A DNA stretch of 62,081 nucleotides, the filler included, from Globobulimina sp. (lineage: Eukaryota), in assembly GCA_003354225.1 (NCBI GenBank). It is 20 parts of 20 records of this genome, joined end to end, with 100 filler letters (N's around TTAATTAATTAA, not from the genome) between each part and the next. Parts side by side here need not be neighbours in the genome. Positions count along the whole stretch, not along the records: positions 3,112 to 6,122 come from PIVH01004030.1; 19 more parts are not named here. One strand, 5' to 3'. Shown in pieces: positions 3,012 to 55,006 of this stretch (position 1 is the stretch's first letter; each line of letters starts with the position of its first letter). A program made the position numbers and the translations under genes. Under the pieces are notes generated by a model. The model saw only the letters and a list, made by a program, of their open reading frames with translations, was not told the DNA's origin and made no database searches.

Positions 3012-3111
3012 NNNNNNNNNNNNNNNNNNNNNNNNNNNNNNNNNNNNNNNNNNNNTTAATTAATTAANNNNNNNNNNNNNNNNNNNNNNNNNNNNNNNNN
3101 NNNNNNNNNNN
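3012..3111. other. Artificial contig linker (N44-TTAATTAATTAA-N44), first of 19
   Basis: The same 100-nt spacer with a six-frame stop also starts at 6123, 9233, 12343, 15453, 18563, 21673, 24783, 27892, 31001, 34110, 37219, 40328, 43436, 46544, 49652, 52760, 55868 and 58975. Contig lengths fall steadily from 3011 to 3007. Confidence 0.99.
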
Positions 3112-3113
3112 GT

Positions 3114-4502
3114 AATGGTGAACATAACACACCAGATCTCACTGACAGATTTATTATTGGTGCTGGAAATACATATAATATTCATGAAACCGGTGGGAAT
3201 TTCTATGTTGAATTAACAATAAACGAATTACCTTCACATACACATAAACTACAAAATGACTCAATTATTATTGAAGAAACTGACGACGAACATTATCATC
3301 AAATATTTGCTGAAGACATTACAATCTCATTTGACACCGGCCATTCACACCAGATATCAACAAACAATGTATCACTGTCTGGTGAACATTCACATTCATC
3401 CAATTACAACCTATCCAATGCCGGCGATCATATTCATAAAGTTGTGAAACTCGAGAAACGTTATTTTAATTTCAATCCAACCACTACGCCAACACATAAT
3501 TCATCCATTGCACCCACATCAAATCCAAGCATTGCACCAACAATTCTACCAAATGTGGAAATATCTGCATCAAACACAGCCAACCCAACCACAGATATCA
3601 ACACCGCTGATTATTCAATAGATTTCGAACTGGAAACACTTTCGATTAGCAATGGATTATCGATTGACTCCGTATCTAATCACGTCAGTTCATGCAGTTT
3701 GTCAATGAATGCAGCAGGGAATCACCAGCACGTTACAATAAACCTGGGAGGCGTTGGTGTATCAGATGTGCAGGGCCAACATGCGCACAGTGTCGGTGGC
3801 ACTTGTAATGGCGGCGCACATTCACATGGAATTAGTGGTAACTCGGATTTGGAGCTAAGTGATGTTTATACGACACAGAAAGGAGCGCATTTGCATGCTA
3901 TTGAGGGGAAATCGAGTGTTGATGGGATGCACTCGCACGAATTGTATGCTGTTTCAGATAGGAATGACGGACATAATCATATTGTTTACGGTCAAACTGA
4001 TTATGGTTCAGATAACCATACACATGAAGTTATATTTGGTGAGACAGAATTTGTTGGCGATAATCAGAAAATTAATATTGTAAATCCGTATTATTCATTG
4101 GCATATATTATAAAAACATCGAATGTTAGATATAGTTTTGAGAATTCTGCAGCTGACACAATGTTATCAAAAGAGAATGATTCAGTTAGTAATGCAGCCG
4201 TTGTCTTATCTGTACTCGCTGTGATAGCTGTAATTATATTGTGTGTGGTGTTGGTTTTAATGCACAAATCATATAAAAATGAGAACGCTGTGAATGAGTT
4301 TGGCGAACAACATAATATTGAAAATGAGAAGAAGTATAAAAAAGTTGAAAATATTGAGTTAGAAGCAATTAATACATGTGATATTGGTGAAGTTATTGAG
4401 AGAATTGATGATAATGTGATTGATAACATTGAAAATAATGTGGAAAATGATGGAATTGACACCGGTGATATTCAAAATATAATAAACTATTTGCATAATT
4501 GA
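3114..4502 (+). CDS. Phage tail-collar/HxH-needle-like protein with C-terminal TM anchor, 5' partial
   Basis: Frame is open from the contig start: NGEHNTPDLTDRFIIGAG..GG..ELTINELPSHTH, 12 HxH motifs, INIVNPYYSLAYIIK, TM helix AAVVLSVLAVIAVIILCVVLVLM, acidic tail. Confidence 0.8.
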   Translation, partial: NGEHNTPDLTDRFIIGAGNTYNIHETGGNFYVELTINELPSHTHKLQNDSIIIEETDDEHYHQIFAEDITISFDTGHSHQISTNNVSLSGEHSHSSNYNLSNAGDHIHKVVKLEKRYFNFNPTTTPTHNSSIAPTSNPSIAPTILPNVEISASNTANPTTDINTADYSIDFELETLSISNGLSIDSVSNHVSSCSLSMNAAGNHQHVTINLGGVGVSDVQGQHAHSVGGTCNGGAHSHGISGNSDLELSDVYTTQKGAHLHAIEGKSSVDGMHSHELYAVSDRNDGHNHIVYGQTDYGSDNHTHEVIFGETEFVGDNQKINIVNPYYSLAYIIKTSNVRYSFENSAADTMLSKENDSVSNAAVVLSVLAVIAVIILCVVLVLMHKSYKNENAVNEFGEQHNIENEKKYKKVENIELEAINTCDIGEVIERIDDNVIDNIENNVENDGIDTGDIQNIINYLHN

Positions 4503-4766
4503 TAAAATAATATTATTGCATTAATTCCCTTTAGTTTTTTGTTGTTTGTGTGTTGTGTTTATTGTTCGTGTGTTTTTTGTGTGATATTTTTATTAATCTT
4601 TCTTTTTGGAATATAATGGTATAATTTATTGGTTCAAATACCATCTTATTTCTAAAATGTCTTCTTTGCTGTTTTTTGAGAAATAAACTGTTTTTTGAAG
4701 TTATTTGTCTTTAAAACTTTTTAGTTCACAACATCGTAATTCTACATTGTATTAACAACCAATACA

Positions 4767-5822
4767 ATGGGTATTACTTCAGTCATAGCAACATTCACAA
4801 TTTATGCGTCAATTCCAAGGCTTCAATGTAAATGCCGCAGACAAATATTAATGCAAACACAACAATTGAACCAAAGCGGATTTGATTGGAGTTTGTATGA
4901 GAAACAAATGAAACAAACATTCAACAATTTCACTTTTTTAACACATTCAAAAGAGGCTCAGTATGAAGCATTATCGTATAAACAGTTTGGACAAAAAGCT
5001 TTTGAACAACAGTATGTGTTACAAGGTCGGCAGTACATTATTATCAGTATTGGTTCGTCCTCAACGCAAGCATTTATAGTTCGCAATGACATGCATCATC
5101 ACACAATTCAAGTGATTCCGAATAAATACTTATTGTACGATCTCCGTACAATTGGTGCTATGTTGGATAATCAACACAAGGATGTACAGCAGTTTTTGTT
5201 TAATGTAAAACTAATCCAACACGGTGTATTTGGGGCTACTCCGTCCAAAATTATTATGGTCAATGCAATTGGTTACGGTGTCAATGATATCCGTTCAAAG
5301 GAGGTTGGAGAGGAATGTATGAAACATAACAAACAGTTTTTGGATGTAGGTTATGGGACAAATGGCGCTCTAACTTCTGTGGACAAACCTGCGGCGAAAC
5401 TCATTCATCAAATACATAATGCTGCATATTCTCTGCAGTTAAAAGTGTACATTCAGCCAAGATTAGCACCAAAAATTGAGACATCATGGGCTAAATATTG
5501 GGCATTTACATTGGGAGAGAATGAGGGTGTTATTGATATTGGAGGTGGACAGAGTTTAAATGTATATTATAAAATTGCTAATGACACTATGTTACATGGA
5601 GAAATACCTAAAAAAGTAAAGCCAGATTCAGGTATCAATGAGTTATTCGATGGAAGCGGTGATATTGATGGATCGGAAAAATATGTAACGGATGAAATTG
5701 AACGGAGAGTACAAATCGCAATCGAGACACTTGAGATTGAGAAGAAACCGGACTTAAAGCGGTTTAAAGTGGGTCAAACTGGTAAAATGAGAGACGCATA
5801 TTATTTGAGTATGGACTTTTGA
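4767..5822 (+). CDS. ASKHA-fold (GDA1/CD39 or Ppx-like) protein, apparently circularly permuted
   Basis: Motifs LTHSKEAQYE, IISIGSSSTQ, ETSW, VIDIGGG and GQTGKMR. Confidence 0.55.
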   Translation: MGITSVIATFTIYASIPRLQCKCRRQILMQTQQLNQSGFDWSLYEKQMKQTFNNFTFLTHSKEAQYEALSYKQFGQKAFEQQYVLQGRQYIIISIGSSSTQAFIVRNDMHHHTIQVIPNKYLLYDLRTIGAMLDNQHKDVQQFLFNVKLIQHGVFGATPSKIIMVNAIGYGVNDIRSKEVGEECMKHNKQFLDVGYGTNGALTSVDKPAAKLIHQIHNAAYSLQLKVYIQPRLAPKIETSWAKYWAFTLGENEGVIDIGGGQSLNVYYKIANDTMLHGEIPKKVKPDSGINELFDGSGDIDGSEKYVTDEIERRVQIAIETLEIEKKPDLKRFKVGQTGKMRDAYYLSMDF

Positions 5823-5961
5823 TCTCAGACGTCAGGTTTATCAGAATTTTAATTTCAGATTCTTTTCAATTCCATGCTCTTTCAACGCATATGTGAGAAA
5901 TGATATATTCCATTAAATAGTAAACTAACACGTGAAGTTTTTTACATTGACAGTTTGCATA

Positions 5962-6122
5962 ATGTCGAAGAGATGTTGCAGTGAACTGGATAAGAGTTTA
6001 GAACCACCATCTAAGCGTCAAAAATTAATGGAGGAAGAAAAAGATTCAGAAAACGCAGAAAACGCAAATGATATTGAAACCGAGAAGAAATACCGAACAG
6101 TTAGCATCAACGAAGAATGCGA
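5962..6122 (+). CDS. Hypothetical protein N-terminus with NLS-like motif, 3' partial
   Basis: MSKRCCSELDKSLEPPSKRQKL; open to the contig end. Confidence 0.4.
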
Positions 6123-9640: not shown

Positions 9641-12294
9641 TCACGATATAGGAGCATGATCATCCGTAGATGCCTGACTATATTCAATCATTCTTCCTTT
9701 CGGCTCCAATGTAATGTTACAACTCTTGCCGTAATCCGTTCTATTTTGAGAGAAGACCGGCTTCTGAAACGGGTTGAATTTCTGTGGTAAAGATGGCTTT
9801 TCTATTTTTTTATATTCCTCCTCACAAAATGATCCTGGCATATATGTCATACACAAAGGTTTCTTGCGCAAAACACCAGCTTCTTGAAACAATGCGGCAA
9901 CTACACCAGAACAAATGTATCGATCTTTATAACCTTTTTTGACGCCCACTTCTTGTCGCATGATATCAATAAAATTAATATCAAGAAGTTTTGTGTGATT
10001 ATATTTGTTTCCAATAACTGTTTCTGCAAATTTTTTAATTTTTTCTTCCATATCTTTTCTCTTCGTACCATCTGCATCATCGCCGATATTCAATTTAAAA
10101 TAAGTGGCATTGGTTCGCATCATCTTCCCCAATGTACTCAAATGGATATTAAATTTGCCCGTTTCGACCACTTCTCCATCTTCGATCATTTCGGAGTTGC
10201 TTCCCGATGCTTGGAATATACCGATTGTATTTTCTTTCCCATACATTTTTCCATTTGTTTTGTTTTTGATGGTTCCACGAAATAAAATCCCCGAATGAGA
10301 AAATGCGGAGCAGGTAAACGTACGAATAAATTTGGAGCCATCATCTTCATCTAATCCGCTCCATAAAATAACGTCACCAGTTTGTCCTTTTTCTTCTATC
10401 TCACTTTGTTTAATTGGGTTTTCCCTACAAAAGCCCGGATATTTTGGTGCTTTCACGAAGTTATTCACCACATATAATATTTCGCGCAACCAATTTATTG
10501 AATGCTTTTTTTTGCCTGGTTTTTTTAAAATGAATTTTTTTGACCACTTAATCAAATTTTTGAATGGCTTTTTTTTCTTTTTCAACGGATTTTTCATCGT
10601 TGCTCCATTATCTTCATTTTCATCATCGTCATAAAAACCTTGCATTAATTTTCTTAATTCATCATCTTCATCGTCTGTATGTTCATAATAATGTCCAATT
10701 AAATGGCTTAATTCTTTCAATTGCTTGTCATCACAGGATTGCATTGCTAAACAGGTGCAGGAAACAAGCAAAGCCGTAGCTTTCTCAGCTGTCTGACTAT
10801 GACCTGTATTGGTATCATGATCATGCGGCGTTTTTTCGTCATCATATACAAATTCAGTGCTTTCCAGTGATTTTCCAGTTGTTTCTAAAGCTGATTGAAA
10901 CATATTACACGCAGCTTCGTAGTTACTTTCCTCAATCAATAACTCGCCGAGATATACCCGAATGACAGCCAACTTTTCTTTAAGTGCTTTTTGAGATTCA
11001 TGATCATCAGAAGCGCTCTCCGTCAGATTGACAATGATTGTTTCTGCCTCTTTCAACTTAGTCTTTGCTATTTGCACAATCTCATTCTTCTTTTTATTGT
11101 GTTCTGCATTATCTTTATTCGCCACATGTATTAATCGGAGTGATAGCTCCCCAAATAACACATAATCATCCACATTCATCGCATATTTTTCCTCATCCTC
11201 TGCGGTATCTTCGTCTTCTTCCTTTTCTTCATCGTCGCCGCCGATTTTGTCAACCCAGGCTTTAAATTCATCCAAACTCACCGTATCGCTTCCATCCTTA
11301 TCAATCGATCGAAATATTTTGGCTGCTTTAAATTTATTGATCTTTAATTTGTCTTTAACCAATTTCTGAAATTCTTTAATCTCAAAACTACCCGAATTAT
11401 CCTTATCTGCTTTTTTAAACTCATCAATAATTTGCGAATAAACCTTGAAATTGTCCAATCCTCCTAAATCATCCACATATGCTTCAAACTCTGCAAATGA
11501 TATATCGCCATTTTCGTTTGCATCTATCCGCTTAAATAAGTTTTTAGCTAAATTGGCGTCCAAATTCATTGCATCCTTTGCTAATCTTAGGAATTCATCC
11601 AAACCAAGCGATAAATTTCCATCTTTGTCTGCATCACGAAATGCCTATATATAACAACATATATTCTATTATTATTATTATATGCGATTTTGGGCATAAA
11701 TATTTTTACTTTTTTGAGTGCTTTATATTGTAATAATTTATCAATGCCACCACCACTTTTTAACCACGAATCAAACTCAGCGAAGGAGACCGATCCATTG
11801 CCGCTTGCATCAATCTGACGAAATAAATCGGAGGCTTCGTCATTGTCACATCCTAATTGGTCAGTTGCTAATGGTATAAACTCTTTCTCTTCCAAGGTTT
11901 TACTGCCATCGGTATCTAATTTTTTTAACGCTGCTTTTAATTGACTTATTTTTGATTTTTTAGACTTATTTTTGATTTTTTGTGCATCAATCTCTTTTTC
12001 TTCATCCATATAATCGAAGGAATCATCAGTTAATTTTTTTAAAATTAATTTACTTTGCACAAAAATGCCAAATCCAGGCGGACATTTAAAAAAGTATGGG
12101 TCCTGACCTTTATATCTTCCATCTGTTGTGCCCCTCTTCTCTGTTAATCGAATCCCATACCAAGTTCCCAATGCAAAATGTTTGGCTTTTCCTTTACCAC
12201 CATCCACTATCACAATTATTTGGCCTGTTTTCGATGGTTTGACCATAACTTTATCTCCAACTTCATAGGGTCCTGACGACTTTTGTTCTGCCAT
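9641..12294 (-). CDS. CAP-Gly, six EF-hands, TPR-like and permuted papain-like (YaeF/YiiX, C92) protein, 862 aa; intron 11645-11709
   Basis: CAP-Gly GTWYGIRL..GTTDG..FFKCPPGFGIFV. EF loops DTDGSKTLEEKE, DASGNGSVSFAE, DKDGNLSLGLDE, DANENGDISFAE, DKDNSGSFEIKE, DKDGSDTVSLDE. TPR-like LGELLIEESNYEAA. C92-like TGDVIL..SHSGI..ICSGVVA. Exons of 585 and 2004 nt join in phase. Confidence 0.85.
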
Positions 12295-52861: not shown

Positions 52862-55006
52862 CGTAAATTATATCTCTTTCTTAGATCCTTGTCTAGAAAA
52901 AATTTACTACTTATAAATGAAGCCATTAAAACTGGTAATGCAGATTATTGGCATACTGATGCTAAATTAGCTACACTTGCATATATGGCTGGATATTATA
53001 AAACTAAAACTAAAATTAAAGATAAAAATAAAGGAATTATAATTGTTGCTACATACCCCAATAAGGGTATTGAATTACTTAAATTGGAAACAATTTACAG
53101 GGACAGACGATTACAAAAAGCATTAACTATCAATAATAAAAAGCAAGAATTACCAATTATTACATATAAATATGAACCTCCAGTTAGTTGTAAATTATTT
53201 AATTACAATAAAACACTCAAACAGTTACAAAATAATACACTACAAAATATCATACAAGGCAATTGTAATTGTAATAATTCAAGTTATGTATATGGTCATT
53301 GTGGGCACATAATGACTGGTAATCTTGACATTATCAAAGATGAAAAACTTAAAGAACTCTTTCGGAAAGGAGCTAAGTTTCGAGAACCTAAAGCATTCAA
53401 CTGGATAGAAGTGAAAGAAGCTGCTATGGAATTGGTTGATCAATATTTCAACAAAATATTCAAAAGGATAAAAGCTTACGTGGATATAACACATATTACT
53501 GACAAGTACAGAAGACTCTACACGAACATTGTTGACAACAGAATTAAGTTTCTGTCAATGCATATTAGTAATACAGAGAAGAAATCATGTTTACTACAGA
53601 AGAAATGTCTAACGGAACTGAACCGGTTGCAGTTGGAATATGTCATTGCTCCAGCAGATAAAGCCAGCAATAATTTTATATTCATTTGCAAAAAATATTA
53701 TATTGAGGTTATGTGTAAAGAACTTGGTGTTAGTAGTTTTACCAATGGTACTTGTATTGCTGTGGGTAATAAAGTTTATAGGCCCTGTAGTATAACAGAA
53801 AGTTATCTTATAGCTAAACATAAAGAGCTCACCTTACATACAGGAAGCATAACATTTGCAAAGGATGACGAATGTTTACCAGTTATATTTGCTACACCAA
53901 AATTACATAAAAATCCATATAAATTTCGATTCATTGCTGGTGCTAGTAATTCATCAACTAAACCAGTTTCAATTATATTGCATAGAATTTTGTCACATTT
54001 TCAGCAGCATTTTGAAAAATATTGCAATACAGTTAGCAAAAGAAAAGGTTTCAACTGCTACTGGTCAATCAAAGGCAGTTTAGAAGCACACAGGCGACTA
54101 GAACATAAAATACAAGCTAATAAATTACATACTATAGTTACAGCGGATTTCAGTGCATTGTATACAATGTTTCCACATGACATTATAAAACAGCAACTGT
54201 TTAAACTTATTGATATGTTATTTGGGCATGCAAACAAAAGATTCATAGTAGTTAGTTATAAGAATGTATATTATGCAGACCAGGTAACCAGCAAAAGTTT
54301 AGCAATATTGGATATAAATGAAACAAAAGGCTTAATTAACAATGTAATAGATGAGACATATGTAAAGTTTGCTGGCCTTATATTCAAGCAAATATGTGGT
54401 GTACCTATGGGAGGAAATGCTAGTCCACTAATTGCAGATCTGGTATTAAGTATGATGGAATATAATTTCCTCACTGATAATGACAATAAAATTATAGCAA
54501 AAACAATGACTGACACTATTAGATATATAGATGACATTTTATCTATTAACTGTGAAAAATTCTTAGAATATGCTGAACTTATATACCCCAGTTGTTTAAC
54601 ACTAGAAAACACAACTAAGTCAAAATATGACAGTTGTTTTCTAGATTTAATGATTAGCCTGAGTCCTGGGAAACACAGAATTGCAGTATATAATAAGACA
54701 GATGATTTCAATTTCCATGTTGTTAGATATGGTTTTGCTTGTAGTAATGTACATACATCTACAGGTTATAAAGTGTTTTACACTCAATTAATTAGATTTG
54801 CACGAATTTGTAATAATTTTGATGATTTTGCTCCTAGAATTGGGCAGTTAATACATACATTACTTACTAATGGATATAATAAACCTAATCTGTATCATAC
54901 ATTTTACAAGTTTGCTTCGATATATAGTACTTTATTATTAAAATTCAAACTTGACAATAAAGAGAAAATAGCAAAATTTTTCATTTCTCAAATAGAACAA
55001 TTTTAA
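52862..55006 (+). CDS. Penelope-like reverse transcriptase, 5' partial
   Basis: CNC..GHIMTG, KGAKFREP, PADKASNN, PKLHKNP..RFI, ADFSALYT, GVPMGGNASP, RYIDD, FLDL, QLIRFARIC; frame is open from the contig start. Confidence 0.93.
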   Translation, partial: RKLYLFLRSLSRKNLLLINEAIKTGNADYWHTDAKLATLAYMAGYYKTKTKIKDKNKGIIIVATYPNKGIELLKLETIYRDRRLQKALTINNKKQELPIITYKYEPPVSCKLFNYNKTLKQLQNNTLQNIIQGNCNCNNSSYVYGHCGHIMTGNLDIIKDEKLKELFRKGAKFREPKAFNWIEVKEAAMELVDQYFNKIFKRIKAYVDITHITDKYRRLYTNIVDNRIKFLSMHISNTEKKSCLLQKKCLTELNRLQLEYVIAPADKASNNFIFICKKYYIEVMCKELGVSSFTNGTCIAVGNKVYRPCSITESYLIAKHKELTLHTGSITFAKDDECLPVIFATPKLHKNPYKFRFIAGASNSSTKPVSIILHRILSHFQQHFEKYCNTVSKRKGFNCYWSIKGSLEAHRRLEHKIQANKLHTIVTADFSALYTMFPHDIIKQQLFKLIDMLFGHANKRFIVVSYKNVYYADQVTSKSLAILDINETKGLINNVIDETYVKFAGLIFKQICGVPMGGNASPLIADLVLSMMEYNFLTDNDNKIIAKTMTDTIRYIDDILSINCEKFLEYAELIYPSCLTLENTTKSKYDSCFLDLMISLSPGKHRIAVYNKTDDFNFHVVRYGFACSNVHTSTGYKVFYTQLIRFARICNNFDDFAPRIGQLIHTLLTNGYNKPNLYHTFYKFASIYSTLLLKFKLDNKEKIAKFFISQIEQF

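Follow-up and report, generated by a model that had tools for sequence, protein, structure and literature searches.

A membrane-anchored foraminiferan protein family with an ectodomain resembling the fibre tips of phages and contractile injection systems

The open reading frame (ORF) at 3114-4502 is probably the larger part of a foraminifer-like gene, the ectodomain of which is a fibre-tip module of the kind carried by phages and contractile injection systems and would serve recognition or adhesion. The window (the whole stretch of DNA that was analysed, 62,081 nucleotides from Globobulimina sp.) consists of 20 separate contigs of ~3.0 kb joined by 19 linkers, one of which (N44-TTAATTAATTAA-N44, 3012-3111) lies directly 5' of the ORF. 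Because these contigs are not linked to each other, the genuine context of the ORF is confined to 3112-6122. Translation of the plus strand yielded 462 residues followed by a stop codon. A start codon was absent, the 5' end being truncated at the contig boundary, so that the missing SD site cited in the initial annotation is no argument for this gene. In all four sequencing runs compared, contigs extend 212-556 nt beyond this boundary in the upstream direction. All features named in the initial annotation were recovered from this translation, in the order collar N-half, five HxH motifs, Pro/Thr-rich tip, seven HxH motifs, collar C-half, transmembrane (TM) helix and acidic tail (Table 1).

Table 1. 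Coordinates of the ORF segments and of the region downstream, with the evidence for each
Feature	Residues	Position	Strand	Evidence
Collar N-half, 5'-truncated	1-47	3114..3254	+	PHROGs; aligned to 9qgo, 6ov6, 9nxk
Outbound needle segment	48-108	3255..3437	+	HxH at 60, 77, 92, 106; identity 0.54
Variable tip region	109-203	3438..3722	+	Identity 0.22; alignment gaps; composition
Return needle segment	204-304	3723..4025	+	7 HxH motifs; YmaF 26.4 bits; gp37 profile match
Collar C-half	305-335	4026..4118	+	Ends ..INIVNPYYSLAYIIK; aligned to 9qgo, 6ov6 C-termini
Juxtamembrane linker	336-358	4119..4187	+	Identity 0.21; length varies
Transmembrane helix	359-383	4188..4262	+	Hydropathy; model; same place in P0002, P0009, P0010, P0011
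Acidic cytoplasmic tail and stop codon	384-462	4263..4502	+	Charge count; tandem repeat
T-rich downstream region, candidate 3' UTR		4503..4660	+	T content; contig ends in runs

A split collar was defined by the motif ..W.G...P.GW..CDG..TPDL.D.F..G.G, followed by an insert and then by PYY.LAYI.K. The window protein contains NTPDLTDRFIIGAGN and NPYYSLAYIIK, and the full N-terminal motif is present in its homologues. The N-half carries TPDLTDRFIIGAG..GG..LTINELPSHTH at residues 6-44 and has a mean pairwise identity of 0.58 among five family members. The C-half, to which NPYYSLAYIIK belongs and in which INIVNPYYSLAYIIK occupies residues 320-334, is the best-kept region among these five (0.67). In homologues the collar is longer by ~25 residues (G.I..W.G...P..W.LCDG), and a spacer as well as a hydrophobic segment at the N-terminus is present. 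The proposed homology to tail collars was borne out by the PHROGs tail-fibre families, which matched at 1.4e-9 (phrog_8469, on residues 1-98) and 1.3e-6, and by a profile built from foraminiferan sequences only (A2), in which both collar halves aligned with the solved fibres 9qgo (2.3e-8), 6ov6 (6.8e-8) and 9nxk (7e-7). The Pfam cut-off, however, was not reached. The window protein, in which the first ~25 collar residues are missing, gave no match to PF07484 at E ≤ 1 (cut-off 24 bits), and its full-length foraminiferan relatives scored 13.8-20.7 bits over profile positions 1-27 of 57 only; the PF07484 model leaves out the last collar strand. Pfam Collar was matched at E ≤ 0.01 by 26 of the 38 rows of a mixed alignment (A3) that includes bacterial and phage sequences. 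Scores near to the threshold were obtained for YmaF (PF12788, cut-off 27; 26.4 bits over residues 190-279, and 15.9-26.8 bits in relatives) and, in relatives, for Gp10_C (P0079, 25.6 against a cut-off of 27). When the single protein was compared with the PDB by phmmer, only chance-level matches to ribosomal protein L2 were returned (E ≥ 0.06).

The five HxH motifs of the first set start at residues 42, 60, 77, 92 and 106 (spacing 14-18 residues), the one at 42 closing the collar N-half, and the seven of the second set at 204, 223, 236, 259, 273, 287 and 302 (spacing 13-23). A gp37-type needle is expected to repeat such motifs on its way out as well as on its way back. The total of 12 in an ectodomain of 335 residues, which equals the five plus seven motifs of the initial annotation, was not attained in any of 20,000 shuffles, for which the mean was 2.24 and the highest count 10. 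The likeness to the T4 gp37 needle was weaker than that to the solved tail fibres. With the mixed profile A3 the gp37 tip (2xgf) matched at 6.9e-8 over positions 164-292, which correspond to the HxH-repeat part, but this score is inflated because the motif is repetitive and rich in histidine; with the foraminiferan sequences alone (A2) the match to gp37 was marginal (E 0.011).

The same motifs could indicate a surface protein for metal handling, i.e. for the capture or storage of Fe or Zn or for test formation, rather than for ligand recognition. Of the 28 ectodomain histidines 24 belong to HxH motifs, and the HxH columns are invariant across seven family members. The number of motifs ranges from 0 to 29 among 160 proteins, the relative P0020 having 29, and a role as marine iron ligands has been proposed for tail fibres with HxH motifs (PMC11705849). 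However, the seven iron ions that are held by the HxH motifs of gp37 (PMC11705849) would, on a structural reading of that work, be a fixed part of the fold and not an exchangeable cargo, and at most 12 ions per trimer would make a small store. Moreover, the region that diversifies is the tip and not the HxH part. A function in metal handling instead of recognition is considered unlikely.

Between the two HxH sets lies the tip, in which the announced Pro/Thr-rich, mucin-like insert was located at residues 119-168 (nt 3468-3617; 7 P, 10 T, 7 S and 8 N in 50 residues). It is not shared with the four close relatives: the tip region measures 95 residues here against 43-56 in the relatives, and in this comparison the insert is peculiar to the protein of ORF 3114-4502. 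Tandem repeats were not detected within it. As the identity of the tip region is 0.22, while the outbound needle and the two halves of the collar have 0.54-0.67, we infer that the tip would be the specificity end of the molecule.

The trimeric state was addressed by structure prediction. The AlphaFold2 monomer of the window protein was poor (pLDDT 50.7), the TM helix being its sole confident part (pLDDT 86-94). Residues 65-395 of the homologue P0010, which is 37% identical to the window protein, were modelled as three copies and gave an ipSAE of 0.76 in 3/3 runs, while the best of three controls reached 0.00. In the calibration of the ipSAE mark, 20 of 30 proteins with a pair of the same chain attained it versus 1 of 23 single-chain proteins. 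The runs agreed in at least 76% of the contacts, and the partner pLDDT was 56-62. In this model a histidine of 9 of the 12 ectodomain HxH motifs is in confident inter-chain contact, and the contacts of lowest error are made by the collar N-half of one chain with the collar C-half of another; the tip and the three distal HxH motifs are not confident. The passing of P0010 may reflect the memory that the model has of solved fibres. The ectodomain of the homologue P0010, not that of the window protein, is predicted at this low pLDDT to trimerize with its proximal HxH histidines at the interface.

The membrane anchor was assigned from a hydrophobic window of 19 residues (363-381) with a Kyte-Doolittle mean of 3.56. 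The tail that follows contains 19 D+E against 7 K+R in 79 residues and includes two copies of a 24-nt (8-residue) unit at 4395-4442; variants of ~95% identity in the sequencing runs differ by in-frame indels in the tail. A dileucine-type sorting signal at its conserved end (..D..I..IN..) was considered and dropped, as it does not fit all members. The order collar, needle, TM helix and acidic tail is common to four transcriptome proteins from two foraminifera, and in each of the runs X1, X2 and X7 the tail lies on a single contig with the TM helix and the collar C-half. The TM part is therefore not a chimeric join, and the tethering to a membrane that had been proposed is maintained. All four of these relatives (P0009, P0002, P0010 and P0011) have, besides the TM helix past the collar C-half, an N-terminal hydrophobic segment. 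This segment is 14-15 residues long, contains the conserved motif ..Y.V..TTYLL and may be a signal peptide, as the type I topology of the initial annotation would require, or else an anchor that is not removed. P0013 and P0016 have the appearance of type II proteins. An N-terminus that would attach to a baseplate or shaft was not found; the full-length relatives begin with the short hydrophobic segment, followed by a spacer and the collar.

A search of 1.84 billion representative proteins yielded 1636 matches at E ≤ 1e-3. Only four were found at E ≤ 1e-30, namely P0009 (4.9e-68), P0002 (5.5e-60), P0010 (3.7e-55) and P0011 (2.2e-54), all of them EukProt transcriptome proteins from Bolivina argentea or Nonionella stella. 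The next match was at 2.7e-22, and from there down bacterial or phage collar proteins followed, the named non-foraminiferan matches being bacterial or metagenomic collar proteins such as 'microcystin-dependent protein'. Eight further foraminiferan members were recognized (P0013, P0016, P0031, P0043, P0063, P0100 from Elphidium, P0079 and its cluster member P0163), which brings the family to at least 12 members in Bolivina, Nonionella and Elphidium, with several diverged paralogues per species; four share the whole architecture. The foraminiferan setting was confirmed by the origin of the four closest relatives.

These searches also bear on contamination, i.e. a bacterial or phage contig in which the TM helix and tail arose by chance or by chimeric extension. 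Such an origin could be suspected since bacteria and phages account for the great bulk of this domain, with only the 4 close matches among the 1636, and since the window combines contigs with a GC content of 0.28 to 0.48. However, every one of the closest relatives is foraminiferan and carries the same TM helix and acidic tail, single contigs cross from the collar into the tail, and no close relative was found in prokaryote genomes (best 6e-11) or in metagenome contigs (best 2e-14). Contamination is considered extremely improbable. With collar homology found, an intact junction to the TM helix and foraminiferan closest relatives, the view that a virus- or injection-system-derived needle was adopted by a eukaryote is supported.

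A tree was calculated from 136 rows and 114 columns after 20 of 156 proteins that did not have both collar motifs were dropped. In this tree all 11 labelled foraminiferan rows fell into one cluster of 16 tips, and the rows P0115 and P0108, which bear no organism label, were placed among foraminiferan rows. When 12 foraminiferan rows were constrained as a clade, the tree was not rejected (p-AU 0.817) and lay 52 log-likelihood units above the free quick tree; the branch that unites the two foraminiferan subclades had no support (SH-aLRT 0-79). Within foraminifera the family has, judging from these sequences, expanded into subfamilies. Compared with the ~95% variants in the runs X6 and X7, 27 of the 38 listed base differences (99 further ones exist besides) were synonymous and 28 of the 38 were at codon position 3. 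This pattern indicates that the gene is real and that the family is under purifying selection.

The contig itself (3112-6122) is AT-rich (GC ~0.32). Its ORFs are all on the same strand with short spacers of 264 and 109 nt, and an intron is not needed. The 264 bases 3' of the stop codon (4503-4766) contain T at a fraction of 0.50, in line with the T-rich 3' UTR suggested initially. Among the contigs over the ORF, that of X2 stops at 4526, that of X6 at 4583 and that of X7 at 4660, and in X2 cover is lacking from about 4527 to 4777; X6 and X7 are RNA by guess only and the kind of X2 is not established. Together with the T-richness these ends give a weak hint of a 3' UTR downstream of 4502. From one of the three ORFs to the next the contigs are broken and differ in depth, which would tell of expression only if these runs were RNA. 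Joints were not seen in the four runs over the contig, which bears on introns only if the runs are RNA. The neighbouring ORF 4767-5822 had no relative at E ≤ 1e-3 and belonged to no Pfam or PHROGs family; its single-sequence model was useless (pLDDT 29.8), and an atlas lead to GDA1/CD39 (0.87) lay under the trust level and was rejected. The other neighbour, which had been called NLS-bearing, does show a KRQK patch but is only a fragment of 63 residues (5932-6122). Phage or injection-system genes were not detected on the contig by Pfam, PHROGs or protein search, and Rfam gave 0 matches in the window. On another contig of the window an EF-hand ORF was observed, for which two relatives were found.

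The compact arrangement on one strand, the AT-rich contig that requires no intron and the orphan ORF at 4767-5822 would also fit a viral gene from foraminifera, whether of a large DNA virus, of a virophage or of an endogenous element, whose product would be a fibre in a viral or host membrane instead of a cellular receptor. Collar proteins do exist in viruses of the eukaryotic world: the three tail proteins of 45 virophages all carry PF07484 (PMC12724248), and a giant-virus MAG contig (L059) is among the distant matches. That match, however, is limited to residues 1-44 and is no closer than those of phages, and 2.9 million viral contigs contained no close relative (best 3e-14). Besides, the 3-kb contig has no viral hallmark gene, and the members, at least 12 with several paralogues per species, occur in transcriptomes of three named foraminifera. 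A viral gene is regarded as quite unlikely.

Collar and HxH fibre tips are the target-choosing parts of phages, tailocins and injection systems. The tip of T4 gp37 (2XGF) resembles the window protein in its split collar (residues 811-860 plus 1016-1026; PMC12724248), in its needle of repeated HxH motifs and in the position of the receptor-binding part, which is distal and separates the outbound segment from the return segment. It differs in having seven HxH motifs instead of 12 and a head where the window protein has a Pro/Thr-rich tip, and it terminates a long fibre of the virion, with neither membrane anchor nor cytoplasmic tail. The best solved relative is Pvc13 (9QGO; 4.3e-19 with the mixed profile), the trimeric fibre of the Photorhabdus PVC, an extracellular contractile injection system (bioRxiv 10.1101/2025.04.20.649488). 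The two halves of the collar can be aligned, the C-half at the extreme C-terminus, but in the alignments those of Pvc13 are only ~100 residues apart and a TM helix is absent, whereas N-terminal helices fix the protein to the baseplate and a long adenovirus-like shaft is present (bioRxiv 10.1101/2025.04.20.649488). The tail fibre 6OV6 of a Bizionia argentinensis prophage, which has been superposed on T4 gp10 and gp12 (PMC10097599), shares the collar N-half motif and the C-terminal PYY.LAYI strand. In contrast to the window protein, 6OV6, gp10 and gp12 are soluble phage parts with short inserts that form a globular head, and they do not have a needle of 12 HxH motifs.

The nearest non-foraminiferan relatives are stand-alone bacterial collar/HxH proteins. 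In proteins annotated as 'microcystin-dependent', such as P0015, P0065 and P0138, and in YmaF a series of HxH motifs likewise interrupts the collar, but the C-terminal TM helix and acidic tail of the foraminiferan members are lacking. A TM helix past the collar was seen only in foraminiferan rows (P0031, P0043, P0063 and the five of the close subfamily). Outside the tailed phages, the tripartite tail proteins of the virophage DSLV2, which are reported to bind lipopolysaccharide, combine a PF07484 collar with a variable receptor-binding region (PMC12724248). They are, however, short capsid-borne proteins that assemble as a heterotrimer and have no membrane anchor, and 'HxH' does not occur in the main text of that paper (PMC12724248).

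From these comparisons the following arrangement can be proposed. Three chains would intertwine into a trimer, with the split collar, built of both ends of the ectodomain, adjoining the membrane. From there the chains would go out and return as a thin needle, in which the HxH histidines of the three chains would point to the axis and hold Fe or Zn, at most one ion per HxH layer, and the metal would make the needle stiff, as it does in T4 gp37. The tip, which evolves fast and would be some nanometres off the cell surface, would be the ligand-binding end, and its extra Pro/Thr-rich insert is probably O-glycosylated. The most likely use would be recognition at the cell surface or on pseudopodia, or adhesion to bacterial prey, particles or substrate, by which the module would repeat on foraminifera the role that it has on phages. 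It would most likely have entered a foraminiferan ancestor once, from a bacterium or phage, and multiplied afterwards. The most specific version of this proposal, a phage tail-fibre tip in the foraminiferan plasma membrane that belongs to a family with fast-changing tips and holds bacterial prey or particles on pseudopodia, is rather doubtful, albeit conceivable.

In the main texts of the freely accessible literature, no description of a tail collar in foraminifera was found, and nothing that links Reticulomyxa with a tail fiber. Searches for phage tail collars together with eukaryotes and horizontal gene transfer retrieved only unrelated work. By title and abstract, the literature on PF07484 contained no cellular eukaryotic gene, and among the matches listed for foraminifera, horizontal gene transfer and phage none was relevant by title.

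Little is known of the molecular basis by which foraminiferan pseudopodia grip prey and particles. The module described here is anchored by a TM helix, provided with a cytoplasmic tail and present in a lineage of free-living eukaryotic predators. According to the model it would offer a natural membrane-displayed, metal-stapled trimeric scaffold. If its tip is indeed that of a phage fibre, the foraminiferan proteins would constitute a eukaryotic receptor family of phage origin. If the protein acts at the cell surface, it would plainly exemplify how a eukaryote reuses a recognition device of viral or bacterial origin, and it would be a concrete candidate for the gripping of prey and particles by pseudopodia.

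The ORF at 3114-4502 (frame 1, 462 open codons, stop TGA) lies on the piece 3112-6122 of the window and has no start codon, its 5' end reaching the linker. Translation showed all the parts described in the initial annotation, in the same order (see table). The ectodomain of the predicted protein (335 residues) contains 12 HxH (His-any-His) motifs, a number that was reached in 0 of 20,000 shuffles (mean 2.24). In the monomer model (pLDDT 50.7) only the transmembrane (TM) helix was confident. A 24-nt (8-residue) unit occurs twice at 4395-4442 in the cytoplasmic tail. The T-rich 3' region that had been reported was also found, T making up 50% of the 264 bases downstream of the stop codon, whereas the remark on the absence of a Shine-Dalgarno site is inapplicable because the gene start is absent.

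Parts of the ORF 3114-4502 and the ORFs linked to it (residues are those of the ORF product)
Feature	Position	Strand	Description
Collar N-half	first part of ORF 3114-4502		NTPDLTDRFIIGAGN..GG..LTINELPSHTH
First HxH set	residues 42, 60, 77, 92, 106		five motifs
Middle part (tip)			95 residues, includes Pro/Thr/Ser/Asn-rich stretch
Second HxH set	residues 204-302		seven motifs
Collar C-half			INIVNPYYSLAYIIK
TM helix	peak window, residues 363-381		strongly hydrophobic
C-terminal tail			79 residues, 19 acidic, 7 basic
Neighbour ORF	4767-5822	+	351 residues, 264 nt downstream of 3114-4502
Third ORF	5932-6122	+	begins 109 nt past ORF 4767-5822, cut by contig end

PHROGs tail-fibre families matched residues 1-98 (1.4e-9) and 18-111 (1.3e-6). 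A profile of seven foraminiferan sequences only matched the solved tail fibres 9qgo (2.3e-8), 6ov6 (6.8e-8) and 9nxk (7e-7) with both collar halves aligned, and marginally the T4 gp37 tip 2xgf (0.011). With a profile that included bacterial and phage rows the values were 4.3e-19, 1.7e-16 and 4.9e-12, and 6.9e-8 for 2xgf, across the HxH region. These matches bear out the collar homology proposed initially. The Pvc13 fibre 9QGO, a trimer, belongs to a Photorhabdus injection particle (bioRxiv 10.1101/2025.04.20.649488), and 6OV6 is a prophage tail fibre that was superposed on T4 gp10 and gp12 (PMC10097599). The collar of gp37 comprises residues 811-860 and 1016-1026, which flank the receptor-binding part (PMC12724248), and seven iron ions are held by the HxH motifs of that protein (PMC11705849). 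The window protein has the same topology as gp37, with its split collar. The collar motifs align to solved fibres, but the Pfam cut-off is missed. Pfam Collar had no match in the window protein and scored 13.8-20.7 bits in its relatives, below the cut-off of 24, and YmaF reached 26.4 bits in the window protein against a cut-off of 27. Formal Pfam membership thus fails for this protein. In 160 relatives that were retrieved, from 0 to 29 HxH motifs separate the collar halves; long HxH inserts are therefore already familiar from the wider bacterial and phage family.

Complex prediction was carried out on the complete ectodomain of P0010, a relative from Bolivina argentea (residues 65-395, three copies, 38-row alignment). 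P0010 was modelled in place of the window protein because the latter lacks the first collar strand and has a long, probably disordered insert. The ipSAE was 0.76 in each of three runs and 0.00 in the best of three controls, with a partner pLDDT of 56-62 and a contact agreement between runs of at least 76%. In the calibration of the tool this level was attained for 20 of 30 proteins with structures solved as one-chain pairs and for 1 of 23 with single-chain structures. The lowest-error contacts were between chains, with a collar N-half on one side and a collar C-half on the other. Twelve HxH motifs lie in this ectodomain, and 9 of them have a histidine in confident inter-chain contact; the tip (about residues 198-298) and three distal HxH motifs were not confident. 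The model supports, but does not prove, inter-chain binding of the P0010 ectodomain, and its score may reflect memory of solved fibres. To the window protein the predicted trimer would extend only via homology.

Contigs from four public sequencing runs (three organisms, four studies) were compared with 3112-6122. The collar C-half, TM helix and tail were spanned by single contigs in runs X1 (3870-4705), X2 (3503-4331) and X7 (3112-4660), which contradicts a chimeric join of the TM part, the outcome that the initial annotation had named as refuting its reading. All four runs contained 212-556 nt of further sequence upstream of the window contig, and the 5' truncation is therefore a matter of assembly. 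Runs X6 and X7 contained a variant about 95% identical to the window contig. Among its listed ORF differences (38; another 99 are unlisted) 27 were synonymous and 28 lay at third codon positions, a pattern that fits purifying selection on the protein. The TM helix, the tail and the region past the stop codon hold the listed indels, and the cytoplasmic tail evolves via indels. In-frame insertions in these variants were TGG after 4251 (TM helix) and GATGAC after 4409, and small indels clustered at 4315-4358.

The window (62,081 bases) is no single genome stretch: 20 pieces, each about 3.0 kb long and set roughly in order of decreasing length, are separated by 19 linkers (N44-TTAATTAATTAA-N44); only the two downstream ORFs are truly linked to 3114-4502. 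ORF 4767-5822 had no relative at E<=1e-3 and matched no Pfam or PHROGs family, and its single-sequence model had a pLDDT of 29.8. A language-model score of 0.87, below the trust level, gives as a lead that it may be a GDA1/CD39-type nucleoside phosphatase; its IIISIGSSSTQ and VIDIGGGQS stretches presumably resemble the phosphate-binding motifs of that fold. In ORF 5932-6122, which matched no family, an acidic run comes after a basic KRQK patch; beyond the contig end the sequence continues in contigs of X2, X6 and X7. Domains of eukaryote type (U-box with SAM, EF-hands, PH) were found in long ORFs of other pieces. These pieces are unsafe as gene context because GC differs from piece to piece (0.28 to 0.48); the pieces may be of mixed origin or contain repeats. 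Most have a GC of about 0.28-0.33, with 0.40-0.48 at 12.4-15.4 kb, 28-30 kb, 40-44 kb and 56-62 kb. On separate contigs, a 705-residue ORF at 52889-55006 (+) scored 21.4 bits for RVT_1, below the cut-off of 29.6, and may be a retroelement, and a 653-residue EF-hand ORF at 9641-11602 (-) had two relatives, 70% and 63% identical to it across about 19% of its length, both with CAP-Gly (PF01302) too in precomputed Pfam lists.

Searched exhaustively, a set of 1.84 billion representative proteins gave 1636 matches at E<=1e-3, of which only 4 were at E<=1e-30 (4.9e-68 to 2.2e-54), the fifth dropping to 2.7e-22. These four, from the EukProt transcriptome sets, belong to Bolivina argentea (P0009, P0010) and Nonionella stella (P0002, P0011) and have 35-41% identity to the window protein in the foraminiferan-only alignment. 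Their architecture is the same from the collar to the acidic tail, with the TM helix again following the collar C-half, and they also carry the parts missing from the window: first collar strand (G.I..W.G...P..W.LCDG), spacer and N-terminal hydrophobic segment. Further members with other anchoring arrangements came from Bolivina (P0013, P0016, P0031, P0043, P0063), Elphidium margaritaceum (P0100) and a Nonionella and Bolivina cluster (P0079). In P0013 and P0016 the sole anchor is N-terminal. P0043, of Bolivina argentea, also has an N-terminal hydrophobic segment; C-terminal to its collar-needle module come a Pro/Thr/Ser repeat stalk of about 190 residues (Pfam PT 37.8 bits, with the best stretch at 425-458), a domain of about 180 residues that matched no family, and a TM helix. 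The mucin-like stalk would raise the module off the membrane. The 90%-identity cluster of P0079 has entries from both the Nonionella stella and Bolivina argentea transcriptome sets, reflecting either a very conserved paralogue or carry-over between data sets, which bears on the independence of the two species as evidence. No close relative was found in 2.9 million viral contigs (best 3e-14), metagenome contigs (best 2e-14) or one genome per prokaryote species (best 6e-11, 5 matches), scans that depend on short peptide patterns and may miss relatives. That the gene sits in viral and not in cellular DNA is improbable.

The two collar halves and adjacent HxH motifs served as the basis of a tree (136 rows, 114 columns); of 156 proteins considered, 20 lacked both motifs and were left out. 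A single 16-tip cluster took in all 11 labelled foraminiferan rows; its other members were P0079 (later assigned to Nonionella), P0018, P0020, P0108 and P0115. The subclade of the window protein had an SH-aLRT of 90; the branch joining the two subclades was without support. Constraining 12 foraminiferan rows together was not rejected (p-AU 0.817), the constrained likelihood being 52 units above that of the free quick search; the tree therefore allows, but does not prove, one acquisition with subsequent expansion. No donor group could be named from the 136 rows.

In the set made up of the window protein and P0002, P0009, P0010 and P0011, the mean pairwise identity was 0.58 in the collar N-half, 0.54 in the outbound needle, 0.22 in the tip, 0.39 in the return needle, 0.67 in the collar C-half and 0.14-0.21 in linker, TM helix and tail. 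The tip has 95 residues in the window protein versus 43-56 in the relatives. By analogy, we infer that this conserved scaffold with a variable distal end resembles receptor-binding fibres. The core of the initial interpretation, a membrane-anchored fibre tip of phage or injection-system type in a foraminifer-like eukaryote, is supported. A literature search, with supplementary files and subscription journals outside its scope, did not find a eukaryotic transmembrane family with a collar module in print. The collar and HxH module itself is well known; its use as a transmembrane protein family in a eukaryote is what appears to be new.
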